Assembly: GCA_964344415.1 (NCBI GenBank)
Contig: CAYFMS010000001.1
Location: 10,126 to 74,125 of the forward strand
Direction: 5' to 3'
From: an uncultured Gammaproteobacteria bacterium
GTDB lineage: Bacteria; Patescibacteriota; Patescibacteriia; UBA9934
DNA: 64,000 nt
Shown here: positions 9,718-61,444 of the stretch, in pieces
Layout of the letters: every line of letters begins with the position of its first letter
Numbering within the stretch: position 1 is the first letter of the stretch
Made by a program: the position numbers and the translations under genes
The notes under the pieces: model-generated
What the model saw: only the letters and a program-made list of their open reading frames with translations
Databases searched by the model: none
Told to the model about the DNA's origin: nothing

Positions 9718-9737
9718 ATGAGGGCATTATAGCGCAT

Positions 9738-18842: not shown

Positions 18843-18871
18843 TTGACATTATATCATTTATCTCATACAAT
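18843..18871 (+). promoter_or_regulatory. Near-consensus promoter for rpsA, overlapped by an inverted repeat
   Basis: TTGACA-17-TACAAT; the inverted repeat gtcaagg(18825)...ccttgac(18847) shares its 3' arm with the -35 box. Confidence 0.55.
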
Positions 18872-29591: not shown

Positions 29592-29612
29592 TGACTGCGC
29601 TATAATGCATGC

Positions 29613-30737: not shown

Positions 30738-30754
30738 AAATAGGTCATTCCCCC

Positions 30755-33310
30755 ATGCGAAATAACAGCGAACAATCTTCGCCACGTATTTTTCGGACAG
30801 AGAATGTGTCTCTTCTTTTTGACTCTGCCCTTCCAGAATCGCTCATTCATACCGGTATTGCTAAAAAAACATCGGCATCACCCCGTATACATATTGGTGC
30901 AGAAAACCCGTCCCCATATGTCATTCATCTTGGTCATGAGCGAGAAGAAAACGCGATCAGTCAGGACCCAATTGCACAACTTGAATCAGATTTATTGAAT
31001 CAGTCTGAATTTTTTGTAGAAGAAGATGAAGTGGAGGATAATTTAGAAATTAGTATTGATGCTCTTCATCATCAACTAAGCGAGCTCGATCGCAATCAAC
31101 ATACTTCCCCTATTCACGTCGAAGTCGCAGCGTCAAAGGAAACCGTTCCTGAACCTTCAGCATCTCCTCTTCCTGCCTTTCAAGACAAGTCTGTGATTCA
31201 AGAGATCTTTCATACGGATGAGCTGCAATATCAAGCAGATGAGCCGGAATCTGCCAAAGCGACGAAAACAAGAATATTTCCTAAACCCCAATTGCGACTG
31301 CAGCTTTTTACGACAATGCGCGCAAAGGCACTTGCAAGCTTTATTGGTCTTTCCATGCTTATTGTCGGCCCAATTCATGCCATGCAAGGTTTTTCTAGCC
31401 TTCCTACAACCGCAGAAAAAACCACATCTCACGGGCTTTCAGCACTTTCAGAGCTAGATGCAGCTAAAACGGCTCTCGCAGACCAAGAATTCGAACTTGC
31501 TGCATCAAATTTCTCACGGGCAGAATCTGCTTTTTCGGATGCTGAAAAATCTGTGAATGAACTTGGCGCGGGTATTGCATTTGTCGCTAGCCTCATTCCT
31601 CGCACGAATAAAACATATGACTCTGTTGTAAACCTCATCGATGCGGGCCGATCTCTTTCAAATGCGGCAAAGCTCTTTTCAGAGGCAGCAGCTGAATTGA
31701 ATGTCGAAACAGAGGCCCCTGTCCCTGTCACGGAAAAATTACAAAGACTTGAATATTATTTTGCACAAATTCTTCCACAATTAGAACAGGCTGCGAATGC
31801 ACTTGATCATGTTGATGCAGGCATTGTTCCTGAAGAACATCAGCAAACAATTGCCGAGCTCAAATCATCCGTTCCAGCAGCTAAAAAGAGCGCTGAAGAA
31901 TTTCTCGCATTCTCAGAGACGCTTCGCACCATGCTCGGGGATGAAATGGACATGCGTTACTTACTCGCCTTCCAAAACAATACAGAGCTTCGAGCAACCG
32001 GTGGATTCATTGGTAGCTTTGCACAATTAGATTTCTCTCAAGGCAAAATCAAAAAGCTACATATTCCAGAAGGCGGAACGTATGATGTCCAAGGGCAACT
32101 TCAATCATTCGTAGAAGCGCCTGAGCCACTCACGCTTATTAACCCTCGATGGGAATTTCATGATGCAAATTGGTTCCCTGACTTCCCACTTTCAGCGCGT
32201 AAAATGCTCGATTTCTACGAGGAATCTGGCGGGCCAAGTGTTGACGGACTCATCGCCATCAATGCGAGTATTCTCCCAGAAATCTTAGCGATCACCGGAC
32301 CAATTGACTTACCGAAGTATGATCGTGTCATCACCAGCGAGAATGTTCTTTTCGAAACACAAAAAATCGTTGAATTTGAATACACGGAATACGAAAATGA
32401 AAATGATGAGCGAATCGAAGAAGCTCCGAAGGCATTTATCGGGGAGCTTGCCCCCCTTCTCCTTGAACGTATTGGTGAGCTTGAAATGAATGAATTATTG
32501 CAAGTTGCTGATCTCTTTGCCGGACAATTAAATCAAAGTGAAATACAGCTTTATTTTGCGAATAATGATTTACAAAAGACCATTGATCATCTTGGCTGGT
32601 CCGGAAAACAGCTCCATTCAACTGGTGACTATTTACAAATCATCAATTCAAATATTGGCGGAGGTAAAACGGATGGCATCATTGATCAGACCGTTCATAT
32701 GCAAGTTGAATTGCAACAAGATGGAAGTATTGTAAATACGCTTCACATCACAAAGACACATCGCGGTATAAAATCAGCGCTCTTCGAGGGGCAAAATAAT
32801 GTTGATTATATGCGTGTCTATGTGCCTGAAGGGTCCGAACTTCTATATGCGGATGGTTTTGAAATCCCAGATGAATCTCTCTTCGAGCAAAGCGCTATCC
32901 CTTTGAATACTGATGAAGACTTGGCATTTATTACATCTGACGCTTCTGAACATGAAGAAAGTCAAACGGATATTTGGCATGAAAATGGTAAAACTGTCTT
33001 TGGAAATTGGGTGCAAACAAAACCAGGCGAAACGCAGATTGTTACCATTAGCTATGAGCTTCCATTCAAAATTGATGCCGAAAAGCCAGATACATTCGCG
33101 CAAAAAATCAAAGATCAGATCGGCCTTCGAACACTTGATAATTATTCACTCTTGATTCAAAAGCAATCCGGCGTTGAGCATCGCGAAACAAGCGTTCAAT
33201 TCATTCTCCCTTCTGACAAAACTGTTCTTTGGAGCAGTCATGATGAATCGCCCGTCACCGTTCAGAATGAAAATAATGCGCTCATTCATTATCTCATTGA
33301 GTCATTTTAA
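30755..33310 (+). CDS. Large membrane-anchored DUF4012-like protein
   Basis: 851 aa with a TM at ~190; YLLAFQNNTELRATGGFIGSFAQLDF matches the conserved DUF4012 core found in polysaccharide loci. Confidence 0.5.
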   Translation: MRNNSEQSSPRIFRTENVSLLFDSALPESLIHTGIAKKTSASPRIHIGAENPSPYVIHLGHEREENAISQDPIAQLESDLLNQSEFFVEEDEVEDNLEISIDALHHQLSELDRNQHTSPIHVEVAASKETVPEPSASPLPAFQDKSVIQEIFHTDELQYQADEPESAKATKTRIFPKPQLRLQLFTTMRAKALASFIGLSMLIVGPIHAMQGFSSLPTTAEKTTSHGLSALSELDAAKTALADQEFELAASNFSRAESAFSDAEKSVNELGAGIAFVASLIPRTNKTYDSVVNLIDAGRSLSNAAKLFSEAAAELNVETEAPVPVTEKLQRLEYYFAQILPQLEQAANALDHVDAGIVPEEHQQTIAELKSSVPAAKKSAEEFLAFSETLRTMLGDEMDMRYLLAFQNNTELRATGGFIGSFAQLDFSQGKIKKLHIPEGGTYDVQGQLQSFVEAPEPLTLINPRWEFHDANWFPDFPLSARKMLDFYEESGGPSVDGLIAINASILPEILAITGPIDLPKYDRVITSENVLFETQKIVEFEYTEYENENDERIEEAPKAFIGELAPLLLERIGELEMNELLQVADLFAGQLNQSEIQLYFANNDLQKTIDHLGWSGKQLHSTGDYLQIINSNIGGGKTDGIIDQTVHMQVELQQDGSIVNTLHITKTHRGIKSALFEGQNNVDYMRVYVPEGSELLYADGFEIPDESLFEQSAIPLNTDEDLAFITSDASEHEESQTDIWHENGKTVFGNWVQTKPGETQIVTISYELPFKIDAEKPDTFAQKIKDQIGLRTLDNYSLLIQKQSGVEHRETSVQFILPSDKTVLWSSHDESPVTVQNENNALIHYLIESF

Positions 33311-33312
33311 TT

Positions 33313-35139
33313 ATGTCCAAAAAGAAAAAGCCCTCAAAGGCTCAGCATAAAAAAGAAAATGTGAAGCAGATTCAAGATGGATTGAAGGCTATTTATGGTG
33401 ATGAAAAAGTAGATTTTTCTAAGATCGACAGAAAAAAGGCTGACACAACGACATGGCTTTTAAGAATTATCTTTATCCTTGCAGGTATTGCAGCGGCGGC
33501 ATGGGGTAGTTTTTTTGTCTATCAAAATTACTTCGCACAAAAAGGTGAAACGGGATTTGAACTCGATATTTTGCATGAAAAGGACATTACAAGTGGGACA
33601 GAAACGAGTTTGAGCATTCATTATCGTAATCGCAGTAATGCGCCGCTGGCCGCGCTTGATATCGATTTAAATATCCCAGACGGTTTTATTATTACATCGA
33701 CAAGCGAAGAAATGGACGATACAGATGAACTCATTTGGCAACTCGGTTCCTTGCCGGCTCGCAGCGATGGCATTATTGATATTGAAGGAATCTGGGTTTC
33801 TGACATACCAGACACACAAGTGGTGCAGGTACTCGCTGAATATAAACCGAGTAATTTTAATGCAGATTTCCAGAAAATAGAGACGCTTCAAATCAATACG
33901 ATTCATAGCATTATCGACACAGAACTCACTGGACCCGAGGAATTAACACCTGGTGATATTGGTGAATACGAACTCATGATTTCAAATCCAAGCGCCTTTG
34001 ACAGCCCGCCGCTGCGAATCACTATCGATGCACCAGACGGTTTTTTCTTGGAAGATAGTGATCCAGAAATTGAACCCGGATCTGCGCTCATATTCGATAT
34101 CCCTGCCCTTGAAAAAGAATCTGAAACATCTATTTCCTTCTCCGGATCTTTTTCATCCGATACGGAAGGGTTTGAATATGTAACCGCTATCACATCTTTC
34201 AAGCATAATGATCAGGTATTCGAACAAACAAATTCACAAATGTTCACCGATGTACTTGCAAGTGACCTCTCTGTACAGCTCGTCATCAATGGGTCGGGCA
34301 ATTCGGCGAGTGGTGCTCTTGGAGAAGATTCAAGAATTACGGTAGCCATCGAAAATACAGGTTCGAGCACCGTTGATGACGCTTCACTCCTACTCGATTT
34401 CCAGGTTGAAGAAGGAAAAAGGATGCCAATTCTGTGGTCAAGCGCTGATTATGATGGCGGGACGCTGACATCGGATGGTGTTCGGTGGAATAGCTCAGAT
34501 ATTGGCAGTATTGCACCGGGTGAAAAAAAGCTCTTCAATTTACGATTCCCTATTAAATCTACCCTTGCGGGCGATGATGCGGATGCCTTAACCGTTATCG
34601 CACATGTTGAACGATCGAGTGGAACAGTGCGGTCAAAGACCATACCAATTATTATTTCAGCTTCAACCGATTTTAATGCATGGCTTCGATACTTTGATGC
34701 GGACGGTGTCGTTATTGGATCTGGCCCCTTGCCCCCAGTATCAAGTGAAAAAACCACATATCAACTTGTATTTGAAATTGGGAATTCCATTCACCCGCTT
34801 CAGGATATTCGCGTCGAATCTACACTTGCGCCCGCTGCAGCATTCGAAGGTGGCACTTCATCGGATTCGGGAAGTATTTTCTACGATGCCGATACAAGAA
34901 AAATCATTTGGGACATGAATGACTTGGCAGAGCATGCGGGAAATATACAGGCTACTGTATTTATTTCCATCACGCCGGACGCTCAGGACATTGGAAATTT
35001 TGTTCAGCTTTTATCAGCACCGACTCTCATTGCAACCGATGCTGAAACATCTGACTTCATTCAAGAGTCAGAATCAAAATTAACAACCGAACTCGTGGAC
35101 GACTCTTTCAATACCGCCAGCGGAGTGGTTTCGGAGTAA
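33313..35139 (+). CDS. Large N-terminally anchored extracellular protein, unknown function
   Basis: 608 aa; basic cytoplasmic N-terminus, one TM, then a D/S/T-rich beta-rich ectodomain. Confidence 0.5.
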   Translation: MSKKKKPSKAQHKKENVKQIQDGLKAIYGDEKVDFSKIDRKKADTTTWLLRIIFILAGIAAAAWGSFFVYQNYFAQKGETGFELDILHEKDITSGTETSLSIHYRNRSNAPLAALDIDLNIPDGFIITSTSEEMDDTDELIWQLGSLPARSDGIIDIEGIWVSDIPDTQVVQVLAEYKPSNFNADFQKIETLQINTIHSIIDTELTGPEELTPGDIGEYELMISNPSAFDSPPLRITIDAPDGFFLEDSDPEIEPGSALIFDIPALEKESETSISFSGSFSSDTEGFEYVTAITSFKHNDQVFEQTNSQMFTDVLASDLSVQLVINGSGNSASGALGEDSRITVAIENTGSSTVDDASLLLDFQVEEGKRMPILWSSADYDGGTLTSDGVRWNSSDIGSIAPGEKKLFNLRFPIKSTLAGDDADALTVIAHVERSSGTVRSKTIPIIISASTDFNAWLRYFDADGVVIGSGPLPPVSSEKTTYQLVFEIGNSIHPLQDIRVESTLAPAAAFEGGTSSDSGSIFYDADTRKIIWDMNDLAEHAGNIQATVFISITPDAQDIGNFVQLLSAPTLIATDAETSDFIQESESKLTTELVDDSFNTASGVVSE

Positions 35140-35141
35140 TA

Positions 35142-36095
35142 TTAGCGCCCTCGCAATTTCTTGCTCAAGCGATACATGCCATACCATAATTGCTTCATGG
35201 CAAGGTCATATGTTCCGGGCATTTCAATATAATTTCCCCCAAAGCTCATTTTGTATCTTGTGATACCCGACCAAGACGATTTTTCATTTCCACCCTCCGG
35301 TGCCACACCCCAAAAATCAAATTTGTTCATACCACGAGCGCGAGCATCTTCAATAAGAAAATGATGTAAAACATATTGCGCCATAACATTGCGATGCAAA
35401 TTACTTGTTGCACCATGCAAATATGTTCGCGTCCCCGCAAAATCAAGAATGATATTCATGGCAATAGGTCGATCTTCAAAAAATGCGCCAACAAGCTTTG
35501 CATCAAGAGATGAATCAAGCAATGCTTTATAATAATTTGCCGCATGCGCACTGAATCCATCGCGTACTCGCGTTTGATCCATCAGCCTTAGGAAATCTTC
35601 AATATATTCCTCCGTGTCTAGAAATCTTGTTTCCACCCCTTTACGCGCACCAAGCCGAATATTATAACGAGTTTTTGACTTCATGCTTGCCAAGATTTCA
35701 TCACTCTCTCGATTTAAATCAATCTGAACCGTAGCCCGCGGCTGAACACTACTAACCAATTTTAAACTACAAGACTGATCTGGTTCCATTCGTAAAAACA
35801 TGGCATCACCCAGTTTTTCACGTAAAAGTGGGAGTATGTCATTCATTTCAAATGATCCAATTGGCCCTTTTGGCATATACCAATAGTATTGACCAAGAGG
35901 CAAATCCATTTGAATTGCGCTTGCTGCCATACCCGCTTCATGAATCCGCTCGATACGTCTTCCAAGGGCTGACTGAAATTCACCCCATTCCCATGACTGT
36001 AAGAAGCCACCAAAGGGTGGTTTATGCTCGACAACAAATTGATTCCATTCTTCTCTCGTCATGTTATTTTGAACCTCCCGCCATGCGTAAGGCAT
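35142..36095 (-). CDS. FemAB-family peptidoglycan bridge-forming (aminoacyl)transferase-like protein
   Basis: 317 aa; overall similarity to FemX/FemAB GNAT-like (RYNIRLGARKGVETRFLD...); start may be the internal Met at 36062, immediately after the ruvA stop. Confidence 0.5.
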   Translation of the reverse strand: MPYAWREVQNNMTREEWNQFVVEHKPPFGGFLQSWEWGEFQSALGRRIERIHEAGMAASAIQMDLPLGQYYWYMPKGPIGSFEMNDILPLLREKLGDAMFLRMEPDQSCSLKLVSSVQPRATVQIDLNRESDEILASMKSKTRYNIRLGARKGVETRFLDTEEYIEDFLRLMDQTRVRDGFSAHAANYYKALLDSSLDAKLVGAFFEDRPIAMNIILDFAGTRTYLHGATSNLHRNVMAQYVLHHFLIEDARARGMNKFDFWGVAPEGGNEKSSWSGITRYKMSFGGNYIEMPGTYDLAMKQLWYGMYRLSKKLRGR

Positions 36096-36618
36096 TTTTT
36101 ATTTTCTCTTCCATCGTATCTCCATCAAGGTCCGCAGCCATAGCTGCTGCTTCCTTCGATGGATAGCCAAGACTCACAAGGGCATCGATGACATCTTTAT
36201 CGCCCGTCTCTGTTTTCGACTCATCATCAAGCGCCAATACTCCCTTTAATTCGAGTACGATTTTTTGAGCTGTCTTCTTCCCCACTCCCGGTAAACTCGT
36301 TAGAAAATGAACATCCCCCTCAACTATTTTCTGAGTAATTTCATCCGGTTTGAATGCATTCAAAATCTTCTGCGCCATTTTATGACCTATTCCGGGTACA
36401 TCAATAAGCTTTTCAAATACTTCCATTACATCCCTCCCCTGAAATCCATATAGTTCACGACGATCCTCGCGGACTAAATCATGAATCCAAAACTCAACCC
36501 TAGATCCATTCAGCGGATTGCATCCCACAGGTGCGACAAGATACCCAATTGCATTTGCCTTAACAATGACCCCCTCTAGACCAACATCCATAACCTCCCC
36601 TTCAATATAACGAATCAT
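36064..36618 (-). CDS. ruvA: Holliday junction branch migration protein RuvA
   Basis: HhH motifs LTSLPGVGKKTAQKIVLELKG, N-terminal OB fold; start at MIRYIEGEV (36618). Confidence 0.8.
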   Translation of the reverse strand: MIRYIEGEVMDVGLEGVIVKANAIGYLVAPVGCNPLNGSRVEFWIHDLVREDRRELYGFQGRDVMEVFEKLIDVPGIGHKMAQKILNAFKPDEITQKIVEGDVHFLTSLPGVGKKTAQKIVLELKGVLALDDESKTETGDKDVIDALVSLGYPSKEAAAMAADLDGDTMEEKIKNALRMAGGSK

Positions 36619-36719
36619 ATACTCAATATTATAATGCAGGTTCGTCCTCTTAGCGAATATACCAACTTTCAATATGGCGCGCGCTCCCTACTTACTATTT
36701 ACTACTAGCTACTTACCGG

Positions 36720-37910
36720 TTATGCATGCCACTCCTTCCTTGCATGATGTATTCTCGATTCGAGTGCAGACAAATCAGGATCTATAGCTTTATGAGGGCC
36801 TCGAATCAACGAATGCACCCTTTCAATGAATGACGCGCGCTCTGGACCGAATGGAATCTGTAATTCCTGAAATATTTCATCAGAGCTGAGATTATGTTTA
36901 TGTAAAATGTCTTTAAACGCTGCCTGTTCCTGCTGTTGAATACGATCCTTTCTCACCTGTCTATGCTTTGCCATCAATAAATCTTCACTGCGCAAGAAAC
37001 TCAAAAACACATGATAGTCGCTCGAATGCTCACCATGTTCATAATGAACACTGCCGCAAACAACATCAAGGAAAAGTACGCATGCCATCAAATCCATTGC
37101 ATCGCCCGCATCAAATCCTGCGCGGTGAGCCCTGTCAATCATGACCTGCATTTTTGTAGCTGATGGATTTTGGAAGAACTCAATTGCGTCGACATGATAT
37201 TTGATCAGAAAATTCACCAATTCAATATCTCGCTCAGACAATCGAAGCCACTCACCCACTCCCCTCCTCAAATCTGCAGATTCTCTGGAACTAGAAATAG
37301 CAGCATGATTTGGGTAATGCACCTCGATTTCATATTTATCATAAAAAGCACCCATCACTTCATGTACAGCCGCATGCGGATACTTTGCATGCATTCCCCG
37401 AAATAATTTCAGAAAAAGATCACGCTCACCTGAACTCATTTTTTCATGCTTTCGATGCTTATGCTGAAAAAGGGACAATCCCGCCCCCTCACTATGACGA
37501 TGAGCTTCAAATGTGGCTGTCTCGACCTTGCCGATATCGTGCAAAAGACAAAAAGCATAAAGACTTGCTGCTTTTTCCTTCATAATGAGCTGAAGATGCA
37601 AAATGTCGTCGGCGAAATTCTTCTCTCTTTTCAATTCCTCGATTTCAAGTAGCGATACATTGTCAGAAAGGGCAAAAAGCGTCGCAAGCATCCGCTTTAC
37701 ATGATCTGAAACAATTGCCCCTTCACTATGCCAAGGAGGTGACTGAGGTACAGAATTCAATCCCTTGAGATCCGGAAATTTCTGCGCTGCAGAAAGCCAT
37801 GCATCATCCGCAGATAGAATATTCTTTTCCGTCAACACACGTTCATTCATCCAATCCAAAATAGAATATGTGAATGGAACAGATGTTTTTTTGGTTAATA
37901 ACCTGAGCAT
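36720..37910 (-). CDS. HD-domain phosphohydrolase family protein
   Basis: LLHDIGKVE with upstream His; 396 aa. Confidence 0.55.
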   Translation of the reverse strand: MLRLLTKKTSVPFTYSILDWMNERVLTEKNILSADDAWLSAAQKFPDLKGLNSVPQSPPWHSEGAIVSDHVKRMLATLFALSDNVSLLEIEELKREKNFADDILHLQLIMKEKAASLYAFCLLHDIGKVETATFEAHRHSEGAGLSLFQHKHRKHEKMSSGERDLFLKLFRGMHAKYPHAAVHEVMGAFYDKYEIEVHYPNHAAISSSRESADLRRGVGEWLRLSERDIELVNFLIKYHVDAIEFFQNPSATKMQVMIDRAHRAGFDAGDAMDLMACVLFLDVVCGSVHYEHGEHSSDYHVFLSFLRSEDLLMAKHRQVRKDRIQQQEQAAFKDILHKHNLSSDEIFQELQIPFGPERASFIERVHSLIRGPHKAIDPDLSALESRIHHARKEWHA

Positions 37911-37934
37911 GATTTGTATTATAGCGCAGTTGAG

Positions 37935-38765
37935 CTATTCAATTTCGAGCATGCGCATCACATCATCCACAATATCCTCCCCCTCTTTCTGCCATATTCC
38001 CCAACAAGTGTCTCCGCCATATGTAAATCCCCCGAAGCGCTTCAGTAAATCAAGCGCCTTGTCTGTTTCCTGCACATATAAAATATGCCCCTGCTTCAAA
38101 AGCAGAGTTGTTGGCTTGCCAAAATGATGCGCCATTTCAAATGAAAGAGCATCGCGAATTCCAATCTCTGGATTTGCATTCTCGACAAAGACAAAATTGC
38201 CCCTCCCCTCTCTTTCGGCAAATGCTTTTTTCGCCTGCGCCTCTTCCTCTTTTCTCTTATCTCCCCCAAGCTCGAGCAGTAATGCATGATAATAATCCAG
38301 CCCCCGTTTTTCATCTTCTGGATTCAAATTCATTTCCTTTACCGCCCAGACAAATCCTCTGTCCATTGCTGCCACTATTTGAATCATGAGAGAATCAAAT
38401 CCATGTTTTTCAAGTTCTTCATTTGAGATTTCGAAATAAGCAAGAAATTGCTCAAGAGAACTTATGTCATTTGTTCGGTCGAGCTCACCGTATCGGTGAT
38501 GGTCAATGATGACCACTTTTAATCCTTGATCTTCGAGCTCTTTTTCTGTTTTTGGATCTGGGATTTCGATAATGACAATTCTGTCAGCATCTGGATTTAC
38601 TTCTTTTGCGCGAGCAATGAGATTCTCTTCCTTGTCGAGCTTCGCTCCATGCGGCTGATTTGAAATAAGCGTCGGGATTTTTAATTTCTCGGCGATTGCC
38701 CTAATCGTAAGCGATTCAGGATCATTAATAGGTATCAGAAGTACAATTGTATCGGTAGAAATCAT
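37935..38765 (-). CDS. DHH-family phosphoesterase-like protein
   Basis: VIIDHH motif; start moved to MISTDT (38765) because the upstream extension runs into a terminator. Confidence 0.4.
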   Translation of the reverse strand: MISTDTIVLLIPINDPESLTIRAIAEKLKIPTLISNQPHGAKLDKEENLIARAKEVNPDADRIVIIEIPDPKTEKELEDQGLKVVIIDHHRYGELDRTNDISSLEQFLAYFEISNEELEKHGFDSLMIQIVAAMDRGFVWAVKEMNLNPEDEKRGLDYYHALLLELGGDKRKEEEAQAKKAFAEREGRGNFVFVENANPEIGIRDALSFEMAHHFGKPTTLLLKQGHILYVQETDKALDLLKRFGGFTYGGDTCWGIWQKEGEDIVDDVMRMLEIE

Positions 38766-38796
38766 ATACGCTATTGTACCCGAGGATGATATTTGC

Positions 38797-38833
38797 AAAA
38801 AGAAAAAGCCCCGCCGCATTGCAGCGACAGGGC
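38797..38833 (-). terminator. Strong rho-independent terminator closing the GC-rich cassette
   Basis: Minus strand gccctgtcgc-tgcaat-gcggcggggc (10 bp stem) followed by TTTTTCTTTTT. Confidence 0.8.
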
Positions 38834-39206
38834 TTGACGTGATCGTTTGGCGCGACCCTAACGAGGTGATCGACCCCCGACAGCCATTATGTATCCACGC
38901 GCCCTAGGCTATATGAGGCGCGCTTCTAAACTACATCATTTCATCTCACTTCTGAGTTTCAATCTGCTCCGTACCCTGATTCCTTCCCGAGGGAACGTGG
39001 AAGGGGGCTGCATTATCTGTTTGCGATTTAAGTTCTTGGATGTTCAGATGGCACACCCAGAACCGAGGATTTCTTTTTGGCGCGTGATACCTACGCATTG
39101 GTTTCGAGCATTTCTACTCCTTTTTCTCTCAGCAAGTTTGATTAATCAAACTCGCAGTTGAGTGGCCGACCCGTGGATTTCTCCAGGGTCGGCCCGTTGG
39201 TACGGA
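38834..39206 (-). other. GC-rich structured non-coding tail (~370 nt) of the 39207..39773 transcript
   Basis: No plausible ORF on either strand; several strong hairpins (ggccgaccc...gggtcggcc, gcgcgcc...ggcgcgu); GC well above the genome background. Confidence 0.5.
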
Positions 39207-39773
39207 TCACTGACCAGGATCGAAGTTGAACTCGTACTCGTACAAGACGTCCCCGATTCGATCCCATGCATCGCCCTGCCTGACACAGCAGTGCAAGAGA
39301 GCGGCGATCTTTTTGCCAAGACCAGGGACTTCAGGGTTGTACCCGCCATGCATCTTGGCATCACGATCCTCGAGAAGCTCCTCGATGCGCTCGTAGCGCT
39401 CGTCGGAGGTCATGCCGTTCCAGTTCTCACGCCTCTTGGGCTGAGAGCAGGAATTGACATGCCTCATTACCTTCTCGATCTCAGCAGGATTCATCCCCCC
39501 GCGGTACCCGATTTCCTGCTGGAAGGCGGAGGCGGCTTCCCTCGCAACAACGAAAGCTCTCAGTGCCTTCAGACGATCTTCCAAGGTCTTGATGAACTTT
39601 TCGACAGCCTCTGCTCTGAATTTCCCTCGCCAATCTGCCGCCCGCTTCAGGCGGCGACTCTCGTTCACGAGCTCGAGCAGTCGCTCCAGGTCTTCGACGC
39701 GGCGATTCTTCGCCCCGTGGAACCCGCCACCGATCACCTTATCGCGCACTAGTCGCAAATTCTGCTTTCCCAT
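39207..39773 (-). CDS. Orphan hypothetical protein in a GC-rich cassette (188 aa)
   Basis: SD GGAGG 5 nt upstream; helical charged protein, no recognised motif; preferred over the antisense ORF 39162..39752 on composition and RBS grounds. Confidence 0.5.
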   Translation of the reverse strand: MGKQNLRLVRDKVIGGGFHGAKNRRVEDLERLLELVNESRRLKRAADWRGKFRAEAVEKFIKTLEDRLKALRAFVVAREAASAFQQEIGYRGGMNPAEIEKVMRHVNSCSQPKRRENWNGMTSDERYERIEELLEDRDAKMHGGYNPEVPGLGKKIAALLHCCVRQGDAWDRIGDVLYEYEFNFDPGQ

Positions 39774-39833
39774 CTCTTCCTCCAGCGCCGGATAGGCGCA
39801 AAATGTTCATGTCGCCAAAAATGAACGACGTAT

Positions 39834-39863
39834 AAATATAGCAAAAAAACAGCCTTTTGTCAA
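39834..39863 (-). promoter_or_regulatory. Near-consensus promoter of the GC-rich cassette, overlapping the ileS terminator
   Basis: Minus strand TTGACA-17-TATATT; hairpin gcctt...aaggc plus T7 at 39851..39882 serves as the ileS terminator. Confidence 0.5.
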
Positions 39864-39955
39864 GATATAAGGCCGTTTTTTGGGCTAATCTTAGTGTAAT
39901 AACCATTCAAGTGTCGATCGACACTTATATGAATAAAAGAGAATTTAATACTCCC

Positions 39956-42835
39956 CTAAAATGCTATTTCTACTTGGAATTCTGCGACTTTGAATGATGT
40001 TTTTTGACTACCTTCCGCTGCTTCAAATGACACATTATCAGCCAAAACTGCTTCTTTCAATGCATCTGCATGTTCTTCAAACATCTTTTTCACATCATCC
40101 GATTCAGACCAAATCTTCAAATCAATACGATCTTCAATCGTTAGTCCTGCCTCTTTCCGCAGTCCATTTACGCGACGCGAAATTTCCCTAAGCATTCCTT
40201 CGCGAATTAATTCCGGCGTTAATTCAAAATCAACCGTAACAGCTAATTCACCCTTTTCCACCTTCATTTCTTTTATATTAACTTCATCCAGAATCACCTG
40301 CTGCAGCTGCGCATCGATTTCACCAGATGGAGTTATAACTACGACCGAACCAAGTACTTGCTTCACAGGAATACCTGCCTGCTCTCGCGCTTCGAGAATC
40401 CTACTCACAATTGCGCGCGCTTCACCCATTGCTTCAATGATCTCTTCATCAACTTCTTCGGCATTAGGCCATAATTCCAAATGCACAGAACTTCGATCAC
40501 CCTCCCCTTTCCAATTTCCGTCTAATTCTTGATACATCATTTCAGCAAGGAAAGGCATAAATGGCGCAAGACAGCGAGAGAATACCTCGAATACTGTGCG
40601 CATAGTTGCAAGCGCCTCTTTCTGATCATTACCCTCAACTTTCACGCGATCACGACTTCGGCGTACATACCATGTTGAGAAATCCGTCACGAAAGATTGA
40701 AGCGGCCTGCTCGCACCTTGCAAGTCATATTCGTCCATATGATCTGTAACCTCTACGAGCGTCTGATTCAGACGAGCCAAAATCCATGCATCGAGCGCCG
40801 AATCACCCGATGGACTGCGCCCATCATCATGCTGACGATACAGGGTGTAGAATGTGAAGCTATTGCGCAAAATACTGATAAATTTCTTCGCAATTTCATC
40901 AACATCCGTCTCCTTGAATCGTAAATTCTCTGCATGCACAACATTACTTGAAGCCAAATAATAACGAAGTGCATCCGCGCCATATTCATCAACAATATGA
41001 TTCGGATCAGGATAATTTTGCAATCGCTTACTCATTTTCTTTCCGTCTTCCGCGAGAATGATCCCATGTACAATCACATTCTTGAATGCCGGCATGTCAA
41101 ATAAAGCATTTGCAAGAACATGCAATGTATAAAACCAACCGCGTGTTTGATCTTGCCCTTCAGCAATAAACTCAGCTGGAAAACCATGTTCAAATAATTC
41201 CTTATTTTCAAAAGGATAATGGATTTTTGCATAAGGAACAGATCCGGAATCGAACCAGCAATCAAAGACCTCTGAAATACGTGTGTACGTCTTACCATCC
41301 TTTTCAATCGTCAATTCATCAACGACATGCTTATGCAAATCATCAACTCGAGTTCCTGTTAACTCGTGCAGCTCATCTACACTTCCGACAACAAGAATAT
41401 CTCGATCTTCACTACGCCAAATTGGAATAGGCGTTCCCCAATACCTCGAACGAGAAATCGACCAGTCCGGAGCCGTTTCAAGCCCCTTCCCAAATCGCCC
41501 CGCGCCAATATGATCTGGCATCCAATTGATTTCTTTATTCGACCGAATCATCTTTTCTTTAATATCCTCGACCTTCACAAACCAAGATGTCGTTGCATAA
41601 TTAATGAGCGGACAGTCTGTGCGCCAACAAAGCGGATAGCTATGTTTATACTTTTTCTTCGAGAAAAGCTTTCCATGATGCGCAAGCCATTTCACCATTT
41701 CAATATCAATGGACATATTGTCGTCCGGCGTCTTGATAGGTTTTGCGACATCGTACCCTTCATCAACAAGCGCCTGTTCAACTTCGGGGACAAAGCGACC
41801 ATTCATCAGTACATGCACAATAGGGTCCACCCCCTCTTTTTGTCCAAGTTCTAAGTCATCCTGACCAAATCCGGGAGCAATATGTACAATTCCCGTTCCC
41901 TCATCCGTCGTCACAAAATCAGCATGAACAATACGGAAAGCATTTTCATGATCCGTAAAGTATGGGAAAAGTGGTTCATATGAAGCATCTATCAAATCCT
42001 CTGTTTTCACATCATCTGCAACTTCATATGTCTTGCCCTCGAAAACATCTTTAACCAAATCCTTAGCGACGATATATGTATCGCCCTCATGAGAAACGGT
42101 TACATATGTAATTGCACTGTGAATGGCAAGAAGCGTATTCCCCGGAAGTGTCCAAGGTGTTGTCGTCCATGCAAGAATGAATGCACCTTCATGCTCCCCG
42201 CTTGTGATCTTGAATTTCGCCGTAGCAGAAAGATCAGTTAATTCCTGATAATTCTGACTTACTTCAAAATTCGAAAGTACCGTTTCAAGAGCCGGAGAAA
42301 TATGCATGCTCTTATAACCTTCATACACCAATCCCTTTTTGTAGAGCTCAGAAAAGACCCACCAAACGGATTCCATAAATGACAAATCTTTCGTCATATA
42401 TGGCCGGTCCATATCTACCCATCGACCAATACGTCGAATTGTTTTCTTCCAATCATCAGCATAGGTCATTATCTCGGCTTCGCAACAAGCATTGAATTTT
42501 GCAATGCCCATATTTTCAATCGCTTCTCTATCATTCAAACCGTATTTTTTCTCAACAATGGCTTCAATCGGTAATCCATGACAATCCCAGCCCCATGTTC
42601 GATCAACACGGTACCCCTTCATAGTGAAATAGCGCGGAACAATATCTTTTTCCGTACTTGCAAGTAAATGACCATAATGAGGCTTCCCCGTTGCAAATGG
42701 AGGCCCATCATAAAAAACATACGGATTTCCTTCGCTGCGTTCACTTACACTGCGCTCAAAAATCTTATGCTCATCCCAAAATGCTAAAATCTTCTCTTCT
42801 TCAGCGCTATGCTTTGATTGTTTTTTTCCTTCCAT
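39956..42835 (-). CDS. ileS: Isoleucyl-tRNA synthetase
   Basis: 959 aa; HIGH-type PHYGHLL, KMSKRL, editing CP1 domain, C-terminal zinc-binding region. Confidence 0.95.
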   Translation of the reverse strand: MEGKKQSKHSAEEEKILAFWDEHKIFERSVSERSEGNPYVFYDGPPFATGKPHYGHLLASTEKDIVPRYFTMKGYRVDRTWGWDCHGLPIEAIVEKKYGLNDREAIENMGIAKFNACCEAEIMTYADDWKKTIRRIGRWVDMDRPYMTKDLSFMESVWWVFSELYKKGLVYEGYKSMHISPALETVLSNFEVSQNYQELTDLSATAKFKITSGEHEGAFILAWTTTPWTLPGNTLLAIHSAITYVTVSHEGDTYIVAKDLVKDVFEGKTYEVADDVKTEDLIDASYEPLFPYFTDHENAFRIVHADFVTTDEGTGIVHIAPGFGQDDLELGQKEGVDPIVHVLMNGRFVPEVEQALVDEGYDVAKPIKTPDDNMSIDIEMVKWLAHHGKLFSKKKYKHSYPLCWRTDCPLINYATTSWFVKVEDIKEKMIRSNKEINWMPDHIGAGRFGKGLETAPDWSISRSRYWGTPIPIWRSEDRDILVVGSVDELHELTGTRVDDLHKHVVDELTIEKDGKTYTRISEVFDCWFDSGSVPYAKIHYPFENKELFEHGFPAEFIAEGQDQTRGWFYTLHVLANALFDMPAFKNVIVHGIILAEDGKKMSKRLQNYPDPNHIVDEYGADALRYYLASSNVVHAENLRFKETDVDEIAKKFISILRNSFTFYTLYRQHDDGRSPSGDSALDAWILARLNQTLVEVTDHMDEYDLQGASRPLQSFVTDFSTWYVRRSRDRVKVEGNDQKEALATMRTVFEVFSRCLAPFMPFLAEMMYQELDGNWKGEGDRSSVHLELWPNAEEVDEEIIEAMGEARAIVSRILEAREQAGIPVKQVLGSVVVITPSGEIDAQLQQVILDEVNIKEMKVEKGELAVTVDFELTPELIREGMLREISRRVNGLRKEAGLTIEDRIDLKIWSESDDVKKMFEEHADALKEAVLADNVSFEAAEGSQKTSFKVAEFQVEIAF

Positions 42836-42901
42836 ACGTCGCTAAGATTACCAGTCAAGTCATTGTATTACAAGAAAAAACCACTACACGAAGTGAAGTG
42901 G

Positions 42902-43390
42902 TCAGCGATTCTTCAATTTGTCTGGATAGCAGACGGCATGCAGGTAACCGTCCCCGATTCTGATGCTGCGATCGGACTTACGTGAGCCGTAAGCATATCC
43001 GAGATCTCGAAAACGAATTCCACATCCCCAGTGCACCCACTGACCTCCACGAGGACTATGTGCGGGTATCACCGTGCAGTATTTTCGTTCGGCGATATAC
43101 TCGCCTATTTCCGCTACAACCCCCTGCAATCTCTTGATGACATTCTCGAATTTCATCATTCCGTCCAAGCCGTAGATGCTCTCATCCCAAATGAAAGCAT
43201 GAATGACCTTTGCGTATGGGTCCTCAGGAGCCAGCTCTCCCGAAACGATATCTTCCGGCCAGACGTCGCGCCGATGCTGATTTTGACTCAATCGAATCAC
43301 ACGTCCATATCCATCGAGAAAAAACTGAATATGATCCCCGGTGCGCGAGACCCTCAATGCACCCATAACATTTCGAATTGACATGCTCAC
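42902..43390 (-). CDS. Hypothetical protein, GC ~52%
   Basis: 162 aa; no motif recognised with confidence. Confidence 0.4.
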   Translation of the reverse strand: MSMSIRNVMGALRVSRTGDHIQFFLDGYGRVIRLSQNQHRRDVWPEDIVSGELAPEDPYAKVIHAFIWDESIYGLDGMMKFENVIKRLQGVVAEIGEYIAERKYCTVIPAHSPRGGQWVHWGCGIRFRDLGYAYGSRKSDRSIRIGDGYLHAVCYPDKLKNR

Positions 43391-43450
43391 CTCCTAAAAA
43401 GAAATTAACAGACTACCAACACTCTCGCAAGCTGATGCTATAATACAATC

Positions 43451-43903
43451 ATGAAAACAGTATTCCTTGGTGCCGATCATGCCGGTTTCCATATTAAAAA
43501 TAGTATTAAAGAGCATTTAGAACATGCCGGGTATCATATTGAGGATCTTGGCGCGCATGAACTCGATCCGCATGACGATTATCCGCAATACGCTCAAGCC
43601 GTCGCTGAAGCTGTACTATCTCACCCAAATTCTCTTGGCATACTCAGCTGTGGAAATGCAGAAGGCATTATGATCGCTGCAAATAAATTTGATGGAATAC
43701 GCGCCGGGCTTGGATATTCAATCGAATCTGCAAAAACAATGCGTCAAGATGATAATGCAAATATCATTTCTATACCGGGAAGAATAGAAACCGATGATGA
43801 CCCTCTATCAATCGTCGATGCATTCATTCGTACATCATTCAGCGGCGACGAGCGCCACGCAAGGCGTTTAAAACAAGTCGAGAATATTGAAGAACACAAT
43901 TAA
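43451..43903 (+). CDS. rpiB: Ribose-5-phosphate isomerase B (RpiB/LacAB family), leaderless
   Basis: MKTVFLGADHAGFHIK...LSCGNAEG; extended -10 TGcTATAAT 6 nt before the ATG. Confidence 0.85.
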   Translation: MKTVFLGADHAGFHIKNSIKEHLEHAGYHIEDLGAHELDPHDDYPQYAQAVAEAVLSHPNSLGILSCGNAEGIMIAANKFDGIRAGLGYSIESAKTMRQDDNANIISIPGRIETDDDPLSIVDAFIRTSFSGDERHARRLKQVENIEEHN

Positions 43904-43904
43904 T

Positions 43905-44546
43905 ATGACATTGATCGTCCCAGCAATACTCGAAAAAACAGAAAAAGACTTCAAAGAAAAAATTCAGAATGCAGAAATGAGGTCTCTTGCGAACATATGG
44001 CAAATTGATGTACTTGATGGAAGTATGTTCAATGCAGATTCTTGGGCTGATGCATCCAAACTCCAAGAACTTGACCTACCCCATATCGAATTGCATCTTA
44101 TGATCGACGATCCATTGCCGGTTATTGAAGAGTGGACCAGTCATGTCCCGAATGTCATTCGAGCTATTATCCATGCAGAAATCCCGCAAGACCTACGCTC
44201 TACAATAGATACAATTCATGCAATGGGTATCGATGCCGGCCTCGCTATCAATCCCGACACTCCACTTGATGCCGTATATGAACTTCACGAATCCATTGAC
44301 ATGCTGCTCATTATGGGAGTGCAGCCCGGATTTTCTGGGCAAAGATTCCTGGGAGATCAAATTCTTGAGAAGATTAAAGAAGCAAAAAATTCCTTCCTTG
44401 CTATTCAAGTCGCCGTCGATGGAGGCGTGAAAGAAACCAATGCAGAAAGGATTATTGACGCTGGAGCAGATCAGCTCTGTATCGCTTCTGGCATCTGGGA
44501 TTCAATATCTCCTGCAAAGGCATATAAAATGTATTCAAATCTTTAA
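43905..44546 (+). CDS. rpe: Ribulose-phosphate 3-epimerase
   Basis: HLMIDDP, GVQPGFSGQRF, AVDGGV motifs; start at MTLIVPAIL. Confidence 0.85.
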   Translation: MTLIVPAILEKTEKDFKEKIQNAEMRSLANIWQIDVLDGSMFNADSWADASKLQELDLPHIELHLMIDDPLPVIEEWTSHVPNVIRAIIHAEIPQDLRSTIDTIHAMGIDAGLAINPDTPLDAVYELHESIDMLLIMGVQPGFSGQRFLGDQILEKIKEAKNSFLAIQVAVDGGVKETNAERIIDAGADQLCIASGIWDSISPAKAYKMYSNL

Positions 44547-44591
44547 ACAGAGTTATATTTGCACACCTTTTTTATAATGTTATAATCACGA

Positions 44592-45431
44592 TTGACTAAT
44601 TCCCCATTATTTATGACAAAAACAATCACATTGAAGCAGGTTTCGCTCGTCTTTATCGCAGCGACAATCGCACTTGCCGGATACTTCACGGCATCTATTC
44701 CTCAAGCGCGCGCACTCGTAAGCATCGAAAGCGTGCAGGCGGGAGATTTATTCCGCGGCGAAACTCTTTCAGCCGTTTACTATATGGGAGCTGATGGTTT
44801 CCGCTATGTTTTCCCAACAAGTGGCACTTATTTCACTTGGTATGACGATTTCAATGATGTGAAATTCGTGGCAGACTCTGACTTGCCAAAAGTACAAATC
44901 GGCGGAAATATTTCATATAAGCCAGGTGTTCGCATGATTAAGATCGACAGTGACCCTAAGACATATGCCATCGACGCAGGCGGAACACTTCGTCATGTTG
45001 CGTCAGAAGCGGTAGCGACAGATCTTTATGGATCAGCATGGAATACCATGATTGACGACATGCCAGATGCCTATTTCGCAAATACATATGCAATGGGATC
45101 TGAAATTTCTTCATCTTCGCAGTTTGATAAGTCTGCTATCACAGCAGCTGCAGCAAGCATTGACGATGATATGGGACTTATCGCACCAGCAAATATCTCA
45201 ATCACCGATAGCGGATTCAGCCCAATCGATGTAACGATTGAACCTGGGCAAGGTGTACGATTCACCAATAATGGAACAACAACGCATAATGCAACGGCAG
45301 ATGACCTAAAATGGGGTACGGGAACATTGCAGCCGGGAGCATCAAAGATTCGAAAGTTTGAAGAGTCTGGAACCTACACATTCTTCGACGGACTCAATTC
45401 ATCAAGTACCGGAGCAATCTTCGTTGAGTAA
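44592..45431 (+). CDS. Secreted/anchored hypothetical protein with C-terminal cupredoxin-like beta-sandwich lacking Cu ligands
   Basis: N-terminal TM/signal; C-terminus ITDSGFSP..VTIEPGQGVRFTNNGTTTHNA..GTYTFFD. Confidence 0.4.
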   Translation: MTNSPLFMTKTITLKQVSLVFIAATIALAGYFTASIPQARALVSIESVQAGDLFRGETLSAVYYMGADGFRYVFPTSGTYFTWYDDFNDVKFVADSDLPKVQIGGNISYKPGVRMIKIDSDPKTYAIDAGGTLRHVASEAVATDLYGSAWNTMIDDMPDAYFANTYAMGSEISSSSQFDKSAITAAAASIDDDMGLIAPANISITDSGFSPIDVTIEPGQGVRFTNNGTTTHNATADDLKWGTGTLQPGASKIRKFEESGTYTFFDGLNSSSTGAIFVE

Positions 45432-45487
45432 GAATTGCCTACAAAAAGAATCCCACAAGGGATTCTTTTTTATTTGCGCTATAATGC

Positions 45488-46399
45488 ATGCATATGCCCG
45501 AGATTCGCGCCATACCTACCCTGACACAAGAGAAGCTTCTTAAACTTGAAAGCCGTGCAAATGATATTCGCAAGGATCTTATTGAGATGCTGACGAAGGC
45601 GAAAAGTGGCCATACCGCCGGTCCTCTTGGCCTTGCGGATATTTTTACTGCCCTCTACTTTCATGTGCTTGAATATGATGCGAAAAAGCCTGATTGGGAT
45701 ATGCGGGACAGACTTCTTCTTTCATGCGGACATGTCGTCCCCATTCAATATGTTTTGATGGCACATGCGGGGTACTTTCCAAAAAAAGAACTCGATACCC
45801 TGCGGAAACTTGGATCGCGACTGCAAGGTCACCCAGAAATAACGCATCTTCCCGGTATTGAAAATACATCTGGACCACTTGGTGATGGCTCACCCCAATC
45901 TGCCGGCCTCGCATATATCGCTAAAAAAGAAGACCTGCCTTGGCATACCTATTGCATTATGTCCGACGGCGAATTAGAGGCAGGTATTACATGGGAAGCG
46001 GCAATGTTTGCGGGGAAAAATAAGCTTCATAACCTCACATGGATTATTGATCGCAATAATATTCAAATCGATGGATACACAGAAGACATCATGCCGCTTG
46101 AACCACTTCATGATAAATTTGCAGGTTTTAATTTTGAAGTTGTTGAAATCAATGGTCACAATATCCGAGAATTTGTCGATGCATGCAGTTATGCGAAAAG
46201 TGTTTGGGATAAGCCGGTTGTAATTATTGCACATACCATTCCAGGAAAAGGAGTGGATTTCATGGAAGGAGATTTTAAATGGCATGGATCCCCTCCTGGA
46301 AAAGGCCCTGAAGACAAAGTGAAAAAAGAAGAGCAAATGAAAGAAGCTCTCAAAGAATTACGAACACTGGGCGGCTGCATAACATCTGAATGTGAATAA
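45488..46399 (+). CDS. Transketolase, N-terminal (TPP-binding) subunit
   Basis: GHTAGPLGLADIFTALYF...LSCGHVV; leaderless, likely translated from the second ATG (45494). Confidence 0.85.
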   Translation: MHMPEIRAIPTLTQEKLLKLESRANDIRKDLIEMLTKAKSGHTAGPLGLADIFTALYFHVLEYDAKKPDWDMRDRLLLSCGHVVPIQYVLMAHAGYFPKKELDTLRKLGSRLQGHPEITHLPGIENTSGPLGDGSPQSAGLAYIAKKEDLPWHTYCIMSDGELEAGITWEAAMFAGKNKLHNLTWIIDRNNIQIDGYTEDIMPLEPLHDKFAGFNFEVVEINGHNIREFVDACSYAKSVWDKPVVIIAHTIPGKGVDFMEGDFKWHGSPPGKGPEDKVKKEEQMKEALKELRTLGGCITSECE

Positions 46400-47390
46400 T
46401 ATGGCCAAAAATCGAGATCCAAAATTGAATCGAAGCTGGAAAAAGCGAGATACACTCAAACAAATCCCGACCAGAGATGGATATGGCGAAGGTATTGTTA
46501 TGGCCGGAAAGGAAGATTCAAATGTCTATGTTATCTGCGCAGATTTAACTGATTCCACAAGAAATACTGAATTCAAAAAGCAATTCCCAGACCGCTTTGT
46601 TCAATTTGGCGTCGCTGAGCAAGGAATGGCTGCCGTCGGTGCCGGCATGGCTCTTGCTGGAAAAACAGTTTTTATTGCTAGCTATGCCTGCTTCTCTCCG
46701 GGAAGAAATTGGGAACAAATTCGTACGACTGGATGTTTACAAAATACCAATTTAAAAATCGTTGGCGCTCATGCAGGTGTGTCAGTAGGTCCAGATGGAG
46801 CAACGCATCAGATGCTTGAAGACATCGCCCTCATGCGTGTTTTACCGAATATGACCGTCCTAGCGCCATGCGACGCTATTGAAACAAGAAAGGCCACCAT
46901 TGCTGCTGCTAACATTGATGGGCCCGTTTATATTCGTTTTGCAAGAGAGAAAAGCCCTGTATTCACAACGGAAGCAACACCATTTGAAGTAGGAAAAGCG
47001 CAGATTTTTCGAAAAGGAAATGACATTGCCATTATCGGTTGCGGCCCCCTGCTCTATGAAGCAATGCTTGCAGCGGAAGAATTAGCAAAAGAAGGGATTG
47101 AAGCGCGCGTCATCAATAATGCAAGTATTAAACCAATGGATGAAGCAACGATTCTTGCGGCGGCAAAAGAATGCGGTGCTATCGTGACCGTGGAAGAAGC
47201 ACAGGTCGCGGCTGGCATGGGTAGCGCCATTTGCGAATTTACAAGCGAACACTTCCCTGTCCCTGTTGAACGCATAGGAATGCAAGATCGATTCGGAGAA
47301 TCAGGCTCTCCGCAAGAACTGATTGAGCATTTTAAATTAACTGCGCCACACATTGTAAAGGTTGCAAAAAGAATTATAAAAAAGAAATAG
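46392..47390 (+). CDS. Transketolase, C-terminal (pyrimidine-binding / C-terminal domain) subunit
   Basis: Overlaps the N-subunit stop by 8 nt; the split-gene arrangement is typical. Confidence 0.85.
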   Translation: MNNMAKNRDPKLNRSWKKRDTLKQIPTRDGYGEGIVMAGKEDSNVYVICADLTDSTRNTEFKKQFPDRFVQFGVAEQGMAAVGAGMALAGKTVFIASYACFSPGRNWEQIRTTGCLQNTNLKIVGAHAGVSVGPDGATHQMLEDIALMRVLPNMTVLAPCDAIETRKATIAAANIDGPVYIRFAREKSPVFTTEATPFEVGKAQIFRKGNDIAIIGCGPLLYEAMLAAEELAKEGIEARVINNASIKPMDEATILAAAKECGAIVTVEEAQVAAGMGSAICEFTSEHFPVPVERIGMQDRFGESGSPQELIEHFKLTAPHIVKVAKRIIKKK

Positions 47391-47419
47391 GGACGAGTTC
47401 AGCTCGTCCCTTCGTTTTC
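47390..47419. terminator. Terminator after the transketolase pair
   Basis: gggacgag-ttcag-ctcgtccc hairpin plus T-rich tail. Confidence 0.7.
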
Positions 47420-47599
47420 ATTGTTGGTGTAGAGAATTTCGAGAGACCATTCGGAATCATCATTCTGACGTGCGATGACAGTAGCATCATCACGAATACG
47501 CTTCCCCACAATCCCATTATCGCATGGGGCCAACATTCGAATGGCGACACTTTCGCCACTTGCGAGAATGAGCTCCACAATCTCACCTACACATTTCAC
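47399..47599 (-). CDS. Small protein (~65 aa), possible OB-fold (IF-1/S1-like), non-ATG start
   Basis: SD GGAGGTG followed by GTG (6 nt) or ATG (11 nt); the ORF-track start is TTG; weak IF-1-like pattern GEIVELIL..ESVAIRM..DNGIVGKRIR. Confidence 0.35.
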   Translation of the reverse strand: MKCVGEIVELILASGESVAIRMLAPCDNGIVGKRIRDDATVIARQNDDSEWSLEILYTNNENEGTS

Positions 47600-47637
47600 C
47601 AAACACACCTCCAAAACGTTTCCGCATATTATCAGAT

Positions 47638-48582: not shown

Positions 48583-48631
48583 ATAAAAATATTGTAGCAG
48601 TTCTGACTATCTCATGCTAAACTCCGTTTGT

Positions 48632-60865: not shown

Positions 60866-60975
60866 TTCCGGCGCCCACCTACTCTCGCCATTCTTGACTA
60901 CCATCGGCCCTTAAGGCTTAACTGCCGTGTTCGGGATGGGAACGGGTGTGACCCTCAAGGAAATGGCACCGAAAC
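60866..60975 (-). rRNA. rrf: 5S rRNA
   Basis: Minus strand GGTCACACCCGTTCCCATCCCGAACACGGCAGTTAAGCC...GCCGATGGTAGT core of 5S. Confidence 0.85.
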
Positions 60976-61169
60976 ATTACTGACTTTTTTCTGATCTACT
61001 AAATATCAATTATACGAGGCAAATATTCCTCTTCTCATTTATCGAGAAAAGTGAGTGGAGAGCTGGACAATTAGTACTACTCAGCTGAACACGTTACCGT
61101 GCTTACACTTGTAGCCTATCAACCAGATAGTCTCTCTGGAGTCTCATAACGAAGATTAATCTTGGAATC

Positions 61170-61202
<33 letters not shown>

Positions 61203-61325: not shown

Positions 61326-61444
<119 letters not shown>

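Follow-up and report, generated by a model that had tools for sequence, protein, structure and literature searches.

The spacer between ileS and p276 on the minus strand of the window (the whole stretch of DNA analysed here, 64,000 nucleotides of contig CAYFMS010000001.1) holds a short cassette in which an open reading frame (ORF) of 188 codons, ORF188, is followed by some 370 nt of non-coding DNA. This layout raises the question of whether protein and RNA form one functional module, or whether the cassette is a foreign gene with an unusually long 3′ untranslated region (3′UTR), both of which had been put forward by an earlier reading of the letters alone (referred to as the sequence-only reading). 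The best-supported answer is an orphan gene islet obtained by horizontal transfer, an object of a known kind that indicates neither a new mechanism nor a new RNA-guided class. Specifically, we consider it probable that the cassette is a horizontally acquired, moron-like single-gene islet with donor-derived 3′ flanking DNA, located in a hypervariable ileS–p276 spacer. The foreign composition and codon usage, the absence from four relatives, the own promoter and terminator, and the leader with its Shine–Dalgarno (SD) site all agree with the second of the two earlier proposals.

Composition and codon usage of the islet

The islet and its gene map as follows:

Roughly 38806–39812, minus strand: GC-rich islet of ~1.0 kb in the ileS to p276 spacer, core chromosome
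39207–39773, minus strand: ORF188, 188 aa, with ATG at 39773 and TGA at 39207 (ORF list, periodicity, codon usage)

From 38800 to 39800 the GC content was 0.54–0.615. The flanks had ~0.42, as did almost all 600-nt bins of the window, in which the 23S rRNA was the only other GC-rich stretch; for the ~1.0-kb island the range was 51–60% versus 42%. The cassette as a whole reached 0.57 versus 0.42 in the surrounding genes, and its GC content at third codon positions (GC3) was 0.70 versus 0.36. The upstream edge of the island is marked by a jump in GC content at ~39812, which follows upon ~145 nt of AT-rich sequence (GC 0.33) behind the ileS stop codon at 39956. The island borders on the host terminator and the promoter on one side and on the p276 promoter on the other, and housekeeping genes (ileS, ruvA, femAB, transketolase, rpiB, rpe) lie within 10 kb of it.

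The foreign composition noticed in the sequence-only reading extends to codon usage. GC content at the first, second and third codon positions of ORF188 was 0.63/0.39/0.70, versus 0.56/0.37/0.36 in 27 long host ORFs, and synonymous choice was reversed, with GAG used at 0.70 (0.27 in the host) and AAG at 0.85 (0.37 in the host). The 3-base periodicity of ORF188 had a z-score of 12.6, with values of 17.3 for ileS and 10.1 for p276. ORF188 is a genuine protein gene. A 196-aa ORF on the opposite strand was considered as the actual gene and rejected: it had no SD site and no homologue (E≤1), and is a shadow ORF of the sort commonly seen opposite GC3-rich genes.

Absence of the islet from relatives

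The host was assigned to an Uhrbacteria-like lineage of the Patescibacteria, or Candidate Phyla Radiation (CPR), solely by the names of the p276 homologues, which were Candidatus Uhrbacteria or Patescibacteria group. The gene order ileS-p276-p396-ruvA-femAB was kept in all four relatives (L003, L004, L005 and the P0011 contig). The cassette was absent from each of them, and their ileS–p276 gaps showed no similarity to it. These gaps measured 1 bp in L004 and 480 bp in the P0011 contig, were filled by 310 bp of palindromic GAGGTTGAACCTCG-type repeats in L003 (also present upstream of its ileS), and held a DUF218 gene in L005. Judging from these sequences, the ileS–p276 spacer evidently serves as a tolerated landing site in this clade, and in the relatives it has collected other insertions, namely repeats resembling repetitive extragenic palindromic (REP) elements and the DUF218 gene. 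Derivation of the cassette as a remnant of the latter gene was rejected, tblastn giving nothing better than E 1.7.

The repeats of L003 (6612–6742 and 9779–9948, on both sides of ileS) form an element resembling REPs or miniature inverted-repeat transposable elements, in which GAGTGGAGAAATCTCCTGTAG is followed by tandem palindromes CTCGAGGTTGAACCTCGG; this element was absent from the window.

No target-site duplication, terminal inverted repeats or second copy of the cassette was seen in the window, and Tandem Repeats Finder (TRF) detected no tandem repeats in 38500–40200. Neither a phage DNA match nor a PHROG match was obtained. The search for a donor or other copies by blastn of phage and plasmid collections returned nothing, nor did a scan of IMG/VR with the ORF188 protein or exact scans for tail segments, two of them in JGI metagenomes and two in IMG/VR. 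An 18-nt palindrome match in L006 was rejected, since it lay inside an AT-rich phage coding region and occurred at chance frequency. The co-occurrence of ORF and tail elsewhere, which the sequence-only reading had proposed to look for, therefore did not materialise: no second occurrence of either was found.

ORF188 as an orphan

The orphan status and the lack of a recognisable domain claimed in the sequence-only reading both held. Only ORF188 itself was retrieved by a search of 5.8 G clusters and an exhaustive HMMER search of 1.84 G representatives (~15 billion proteins), and no homologue placed it in a common housekeeping family. Comparison with Pfam, PHROGs, PADLOC and NCBIfam yielded sub-threshold matches only (E of at least 0.012), none of which reached a curated threshold, and phmmer against the PDB gave E-values of at least 0.59. 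One match at E 1.8e-5 (P0002) was rejected as a homologue, being a 2726-aa protein of 75-aa coiled-coil repeats with 12 matches, which indicates compositional similarity. By these sequence searches, ORF188 is a true orphan.

The predicted protein would be soluble and highly charged; it has a mass of 21.7 kDa and an isoelectric point (pI) of 9.0, with 35% charged residues, no hydrophobic segment and a grand average of hydropathy of –0.77. In the structure prediction, also suggested earlier, the AlphaFold2 model (made with no alignment) was all-helical, at the low confidence of a predicted local distance difference test score of 48. When this poor model was compared with the PDB by Foldseek, the best E-value was 1.2, which is what a model of this quality leads one to expect. 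Going by size, charge and helicity only, our guess would be a binding protein without enzymatic activity that derives from a phage or mobile element and acts via protein or nucleic-acid contacts.

A candidate promoter overlapping the ileS terminator

Upstream of ORF188 the following features were recognised:

39844–39881, minus strand: intrinsic terminator hairpin of ileS (A-run, stem, T-run), an inverted repeat; –15.3 kcal/mol, z –4.2
39863–39835, minus strand: sigma-70-type promoter TTGACA-17-TATATT with a TG extended –10 element; 11 of 12 positions matched
39774–39828, minus strand: 5′ leader of ~55 nt, counted from the predicted transcription start; leader fold z –1.1, not significant

In accordance with the earlier description of a promoter embedded in the ileS terminator, the –35 hexamer TTGACA of the cassette falls on the loop and 3′ arm of the hairpin that terminates ileS, and the 17-nt promoter spacer takes in the T-run of this terminator before TG-n-TATATT follows. 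The promoter is placed in AT-rich, host-like sequence. Because only three sites scoring at least 11 of 12 exist in the 64-kb window, and every one of them lies just upstream of a gene, it is credible from its sequence that the cassette promoter is real. The other two such sites, both on the plus strand, are located at 9737–9765 before tRNA-Arg (9779) and at 18843–18871 before a 414-aa gene (18917).

The SD site GGAGG at 39783–39779, 5 nt ahead of the ORF188 ATG, was as good as previously described. Among the 18 genes called around the locus, an SD-like motif was present in three, including ORF188, compared to seven with a TATAAT/TACAAT box 5–9 nt before the start codon, which suggests from sequence that this organism mostly uses leaderless mRNAs. 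A leader of ~55 nt with a canonical SD site is therefore unusual for this host. The host boxes often read GCGCTATAAT in the region ~29600–49300 (corresponding to L001), for example at 38773–38778 and at the starts of p396 and ruvA.

Two further observations concern this region. A palindrome at 39904–39931, with a perfect 18-nt core AAGTGTCGATCGACACTT and without T-run, is situated past the stop codon of ileS and ahead of the terminator of this gene. Moreover, a 55-aa gene on the minus strand (39739–39906) was called in the public assembly; because it covers promoter and leader, extends into the start of ORF188 and crosses the ileS terminator, this call is probably spurious.

The tail and its terminator

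Downstream of the ORF188 stop codon, the cassette contains:

39164–39194, minus strand: hairpin 1, G/C-rich stem of 13 bp interrupted by one bulge and capped by a GAAA loop, no T-run; –26.7 kcal/mol, z –6.4
39132–39155, minus strand: hairpin 2, near-perfect palindrome GCGAGTTTGATTAATCAAACTTGC; –12.4 kcal/mol, z –5.4
39091–39122, minus strand: AAGGAG, 5 nt, ATG and a 6-codon mini-ORF (MLETNA, stop) in the sequence just after hairpin 2
38836–39127, minus strand: non-coding middle of ~290 nt, GC ~50%; folds z +0.6, –0.1 and –1.3, periodicity z 1.1
38797–38835, minus strand: intrinsic terminator, 12-bp stem (8 G-C) with 6-nt loop, TTTTTCTTTTT; –23.1 kcal/mol, z –5.2
38763–38778, minus strand: native –10 box TACAAT (38778–38773), 7 nt before the p276 ATG (38765), from sequence

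The terminator, with its stem at 38835 to 38806 and a T-run behind it, closes the island on its downstream side and lies 40 nt ahead of p276. The sequence-only reading had rightly noted a strong terminator with a T-run, although the stem counts 12 pairs of which 8 are G-C, rather than 10 bp of G/C. Since both a promoter and a terminator of its own are present, the cassette is, at the sequence level, the self-contained transcription unit that had been proposed. Immediately beyond it, the leaderless-type promoter of p276, which is kept in the relative L003, marks the return of host sequence.

The ~370-nt tail is non-coding and has a GC content of ~0.51, well above host intergenic levels; because of this composition it probably arrived together with ORF188. 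The earlier claim that it lacks coding potential was supported by a 3-base periodicity of z 0.3 versus 12.6 for ORF188, and by the absence of a protein homologue at E≤1 for any tail segment of ≥25 aa without a stop codon, in any frame. The covariance-model search of the tail that had been recommended produced no Rfam 15 match at E≤1 on the cassette strand of 38300–40300. An Rfam scan of the window at gathering thresholds found rRNA and tRNA only, and ARAGORN detected no tRNA or tmRNA in the cassette.

The fold of the whole tail was more stable than that of shuffled sequences (z –4.5). Sliding windows and per-element folds traced this value to hairpin 1, hairpin 2 and the terminator. The earlier description of a 370-nt structured tail thus applies to the two hairpins behind the stop codon and to the terminator, which beat chance, but not to the ~290 nt between them, which do not.

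Hairpin 1 begins 12 nt past the TGA stop of ORF188. As a very stable G/C stem close behind a stop codon, without T-run, it resembles U-tract-less (‘I-shaped’) terminators and mRNA-stabilising 3′ stem-loops; unlike in I-shaped terminators, a canonical terminator follows 330 nt after it, so that hairpin 1 by its sequence context need not terminate. A 10-mer, TGGAGAAATC, common to hairpin 1 and the L003 repeat was dropped, as ~1 such match is expected by chance by our own estimate. Hairpin 2, the palindrome of which is centred on TTGATTAATCAA, could from its sequence act as a hairpin in RNA or as an operator-like site in DNA. The mini-ORF overlaps the ATG of a 50-aa ORF (38946–39098) that is itself without homologues, and, since the host rarely uses SD sites, it may represent the beginning of an adjacent gene of the donor that was carried along and truncated. 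These data lent no support to a dedicated guide or regulatory RNA, and the tail is most simply read as a donor-derived flank.

A scenario for the cassette and its weak points

Under the horizontal-transfer reading, RNA polymerase would start at ~39828 from the extended –10 promoter that overlaps the ileS terminator, and the ~55-nt leader with its GGAGG would drive translation of ORF188. Hairpin 1 would then end or stabilise the mRNA, in resemblance to the U-tract-less terminators of GC-rich bacteria, while read-through would be halted by the canonical terminator 400 nt downstream, leaving the leaderless p276 promoter insulated. The ~370-nt tail itself would represent the 3′ flank from the donor, composed of a terminator-like hairpin, an operator-like palindrome, a truncated SD and ATG of the next gene, and spacer.

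The likeness to phage morons (e.g. HK97 gene 15; PMC3594210) consists in an extra gene between genes that are adjacent in relatives, a GC content that differs from that of the neighbours, and a promoter and terminator of its own, which at the sequence level make an autonomous unit. Unlike a moron, the cassette sits in the core chromosome (ileS, ruvA, femAB, transketolase) and not in a phage or prophage, and it has an unusually long non-coding 3′ region of 370 nt. With ORFan genes and small islets of horizontal transfer, it shares the lack of a detectable homologue, the atypical composition, the restriction to a lineage and the variable spacer. Orphan genes are usually AT-richer than the host genome, whereas ORF188 is GC-richer (GC3 0.70 versus 0.36) and combines a near-consensus promoter and a canonical SD site with a mostly leaderless host.

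Several points weigh against this explanation. No donor or homologue was found, and horizontal transfer is argued from composition and from absence in relatives, the nearest of which is distant (63% identity for the closest p276 homologue). Being AT-rich, the promoter and the initial ~15 nt of the leader could belong to the host instead of having been imported. In a streamlined genome of 768 kb, moreover, a junk tail might be expected to be deleted, and both the stability of the whole-tail fold and the well-placed SD and ATG of the mini-ORF leave room for some function.

If horizontal transfer did take place, the cassette offers a clean example of gene gain in a streamlined CPR genome, in the form of a complete and strongly promoted foreign unit. 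It is the combination of an orphan protein with an unusually clean cassette architecture in a CPR genome that makes it noteworthy, and ORF188 is a reasonable target for structural or functional study of orphan genes. To our knowledge, the physical partners of most CPR bacteria are not known; the donor, if identified, could point to the physical partner, host or phage of this Uhrbacteria-like lineage.

Alternative explanations

The foremost alternative, which we consider unlikely, is that the 3′ part of the tail is a small RNA (sRNA), either independent or derived from the 3′UTR (~130 nt, ~38930 to 38806), or an attenuator leader of p276. A weak promoter-like TTGAAA-16-AATGAT at 38962 to 38935 would fit the former, but it matched at 9 of 12 positions, which is shuffle level (3 found versus 2.2 expected). 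The strong terminator 40 nt upstream of p276 and the GC content of the segment above host intergenic levels are likewise compatible with such an RNA; the last 100 nt before the terminator, however, folded at z +0.6, no equivalent leader existed in the relatives (with their dissimilar gaps of 1–480 bp), and beyond the terminator p276 is served by a conserved leaderless –10 box of its own.

We rate as quite improbable the two-component module that the sequence-only reading had favoured, in which ORF188 binds or uses the tail RNA (as guide, antitoxin or scaffold) and both constitute a new mobile or defence unit. Both parts do lie within one transcription unit, ORF188 has a basic pI of 9 and is predicted to be helical, the fold of the whole tail beats that of shuffled sequences, and two very stable hairpins start 12 nt past the stop. 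Still, ~290 of the 370 nt of the tail are not structured above chance, there was no Rfam match at E≤1 and no tandem or terminal repeat, ORF188 is without PADLOC, PHROG or Pfam match, and, with no second instance found, neither covariation nor co-mobility lends support. As the sequence-only reading had itself remarked, there was no reverse transcriptase (RT), TnpB or repeat array: RT, TnpB/IscB and integrase were all missing from the precomputed Pfam annotations within 10 kb, where several genes carry no annotation, and TRF found no repeats. With defence families, element ends and Rfam likewise negative, an RNA-guided or RNA-regulated module gained no positive support.

Likeness to TnpB/IscB with omega-RNA, to retrons and to ToxIN is confined to the general plan, in which one unit holds a protein gene together with a non-coding stretch. 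In contrast to a retron, the cassette lacks an RT match in ORF188 or annotated neighbours and msr/msd-type flanking inverted repeats. Compared to TnpB/IscB OMEGA systems, it has no RuvC-type nuclease domain in ORF188 or annotated neighbours, and no IS200/605-type ends, target duplications or Rfam match. Compared to type III toxin–antitoxin systems (ToxIN), it lacks tandem RNA repeats (by TRF), a ToxN-like domain and any PADLOC or Pfam match. Unlike an integron cassette, it carries a promoter of its own, with no RYYYAAC/GTTRRRY core sites around hairpin 1 and no integrase annotated within 10 kb. An Obelisk-like element was rejected as well: in the minimum free energy structure of the 1029-nt transcript the median pair span was 25 nt and 14% of pairs spanned >300 nt, which is not rod-like, there was no Oblin homologue, and the unit is DNA-encoded in the chromosome. 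A type-I-like antisense peptide was also considered and judged less likely.

Very little weight goes to two looser ideas. One is a protein–RNA unit of a hitherto unseen kind, in which a basic helical RNA-binder would act with the hairpins or the tail as part of a promoter-to-terminator cassette moving between distant lineages; the other, separately, is DNA from a GC-richer organism that hosts the CPR cell, in which case discovery of the donor would reveal the identity of this host.

We find it extremely hard to believe that the stop codon UGA of ORF188 undergoes recoding, be it to selenocysteine or through read-through, with hairpin 1 acting as a structure resembling a selenocysteine insertion sequence (SECIS) and 26 residues being added up to a TGA at 39131–39129. 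The frame is open across both hairpins (segment SVPTGRPWRNPRVGHSTASLINQTC), and the distance between the UGA and a stable hairpin is reminiscent of SECIS elements in bacteria. However, neither Cys nor a redox motif surrounds the UGA, TGA is an ordinary host stop in 10 of 47 long ORFs, no SECIS or other Rfam family matched, the extension has no homologue, and selenocysteine machinery was not visible in the window; we know of none in the CPR.

Contamination or a chimeric assembly, in which a piece of some GC-rich organism was wrongly joined to the CPR contig and for which the sharp composition break would speak, is barely credible, because an identical cassette occurs in the assembly of a second sample, where a 1230-bp contig (L002) independently spans the cassette–p276 junction, and because the ORF188 protein was found on five contigs, three of them of 0.2–1 Mb; the island is also bounded exactly by the host terminator and promoter and by the p276 promoter. 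Position 1 of L002 corresponds to ~39826 of the window, within a few bases of both the predicted transcription start and the island's upstream edge, which could also be taken to favour a chimera; this start could reflect a strain-level presence/absence polymorphism that broke the assembly graph, or coincidence.

Neighbouring genes and other features of the window

On the minus strand, p276 (37935–38765) and p396 (36720–37910) form a conserved pair beside ileS and ruvA in Uhrbacteria-like genomes. Neither received a family assignment; sub-threshold hints towards DHH (E 0.021) and HD/HDIG (E 0.037–0.05) indicate that they may, by sequence, be a phosphoesterase pair.

At the end of the window, a 5S rRNA is located at 60866–60973, and the 23S rRNA gene (61051–64000, minus strand) runs off the window end. 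The latter contains an insertion of ~0.7 kb, which is of the intron type because it encodes a LAGLIDADG homing endonuclease (ORF 62094–62627, minus strand; Pfam PF00961, E 1e-24).

Upstream of ileS, finally, a 160-aa gene (42902–43384, minus strand) has a GC content of ~0.50, a strong AGGAGG SD site and no family assignment. Its homologue in L003 is 34% identical (E 2e-40), and, because it is conserved in relatives, this gene is regarded as native.

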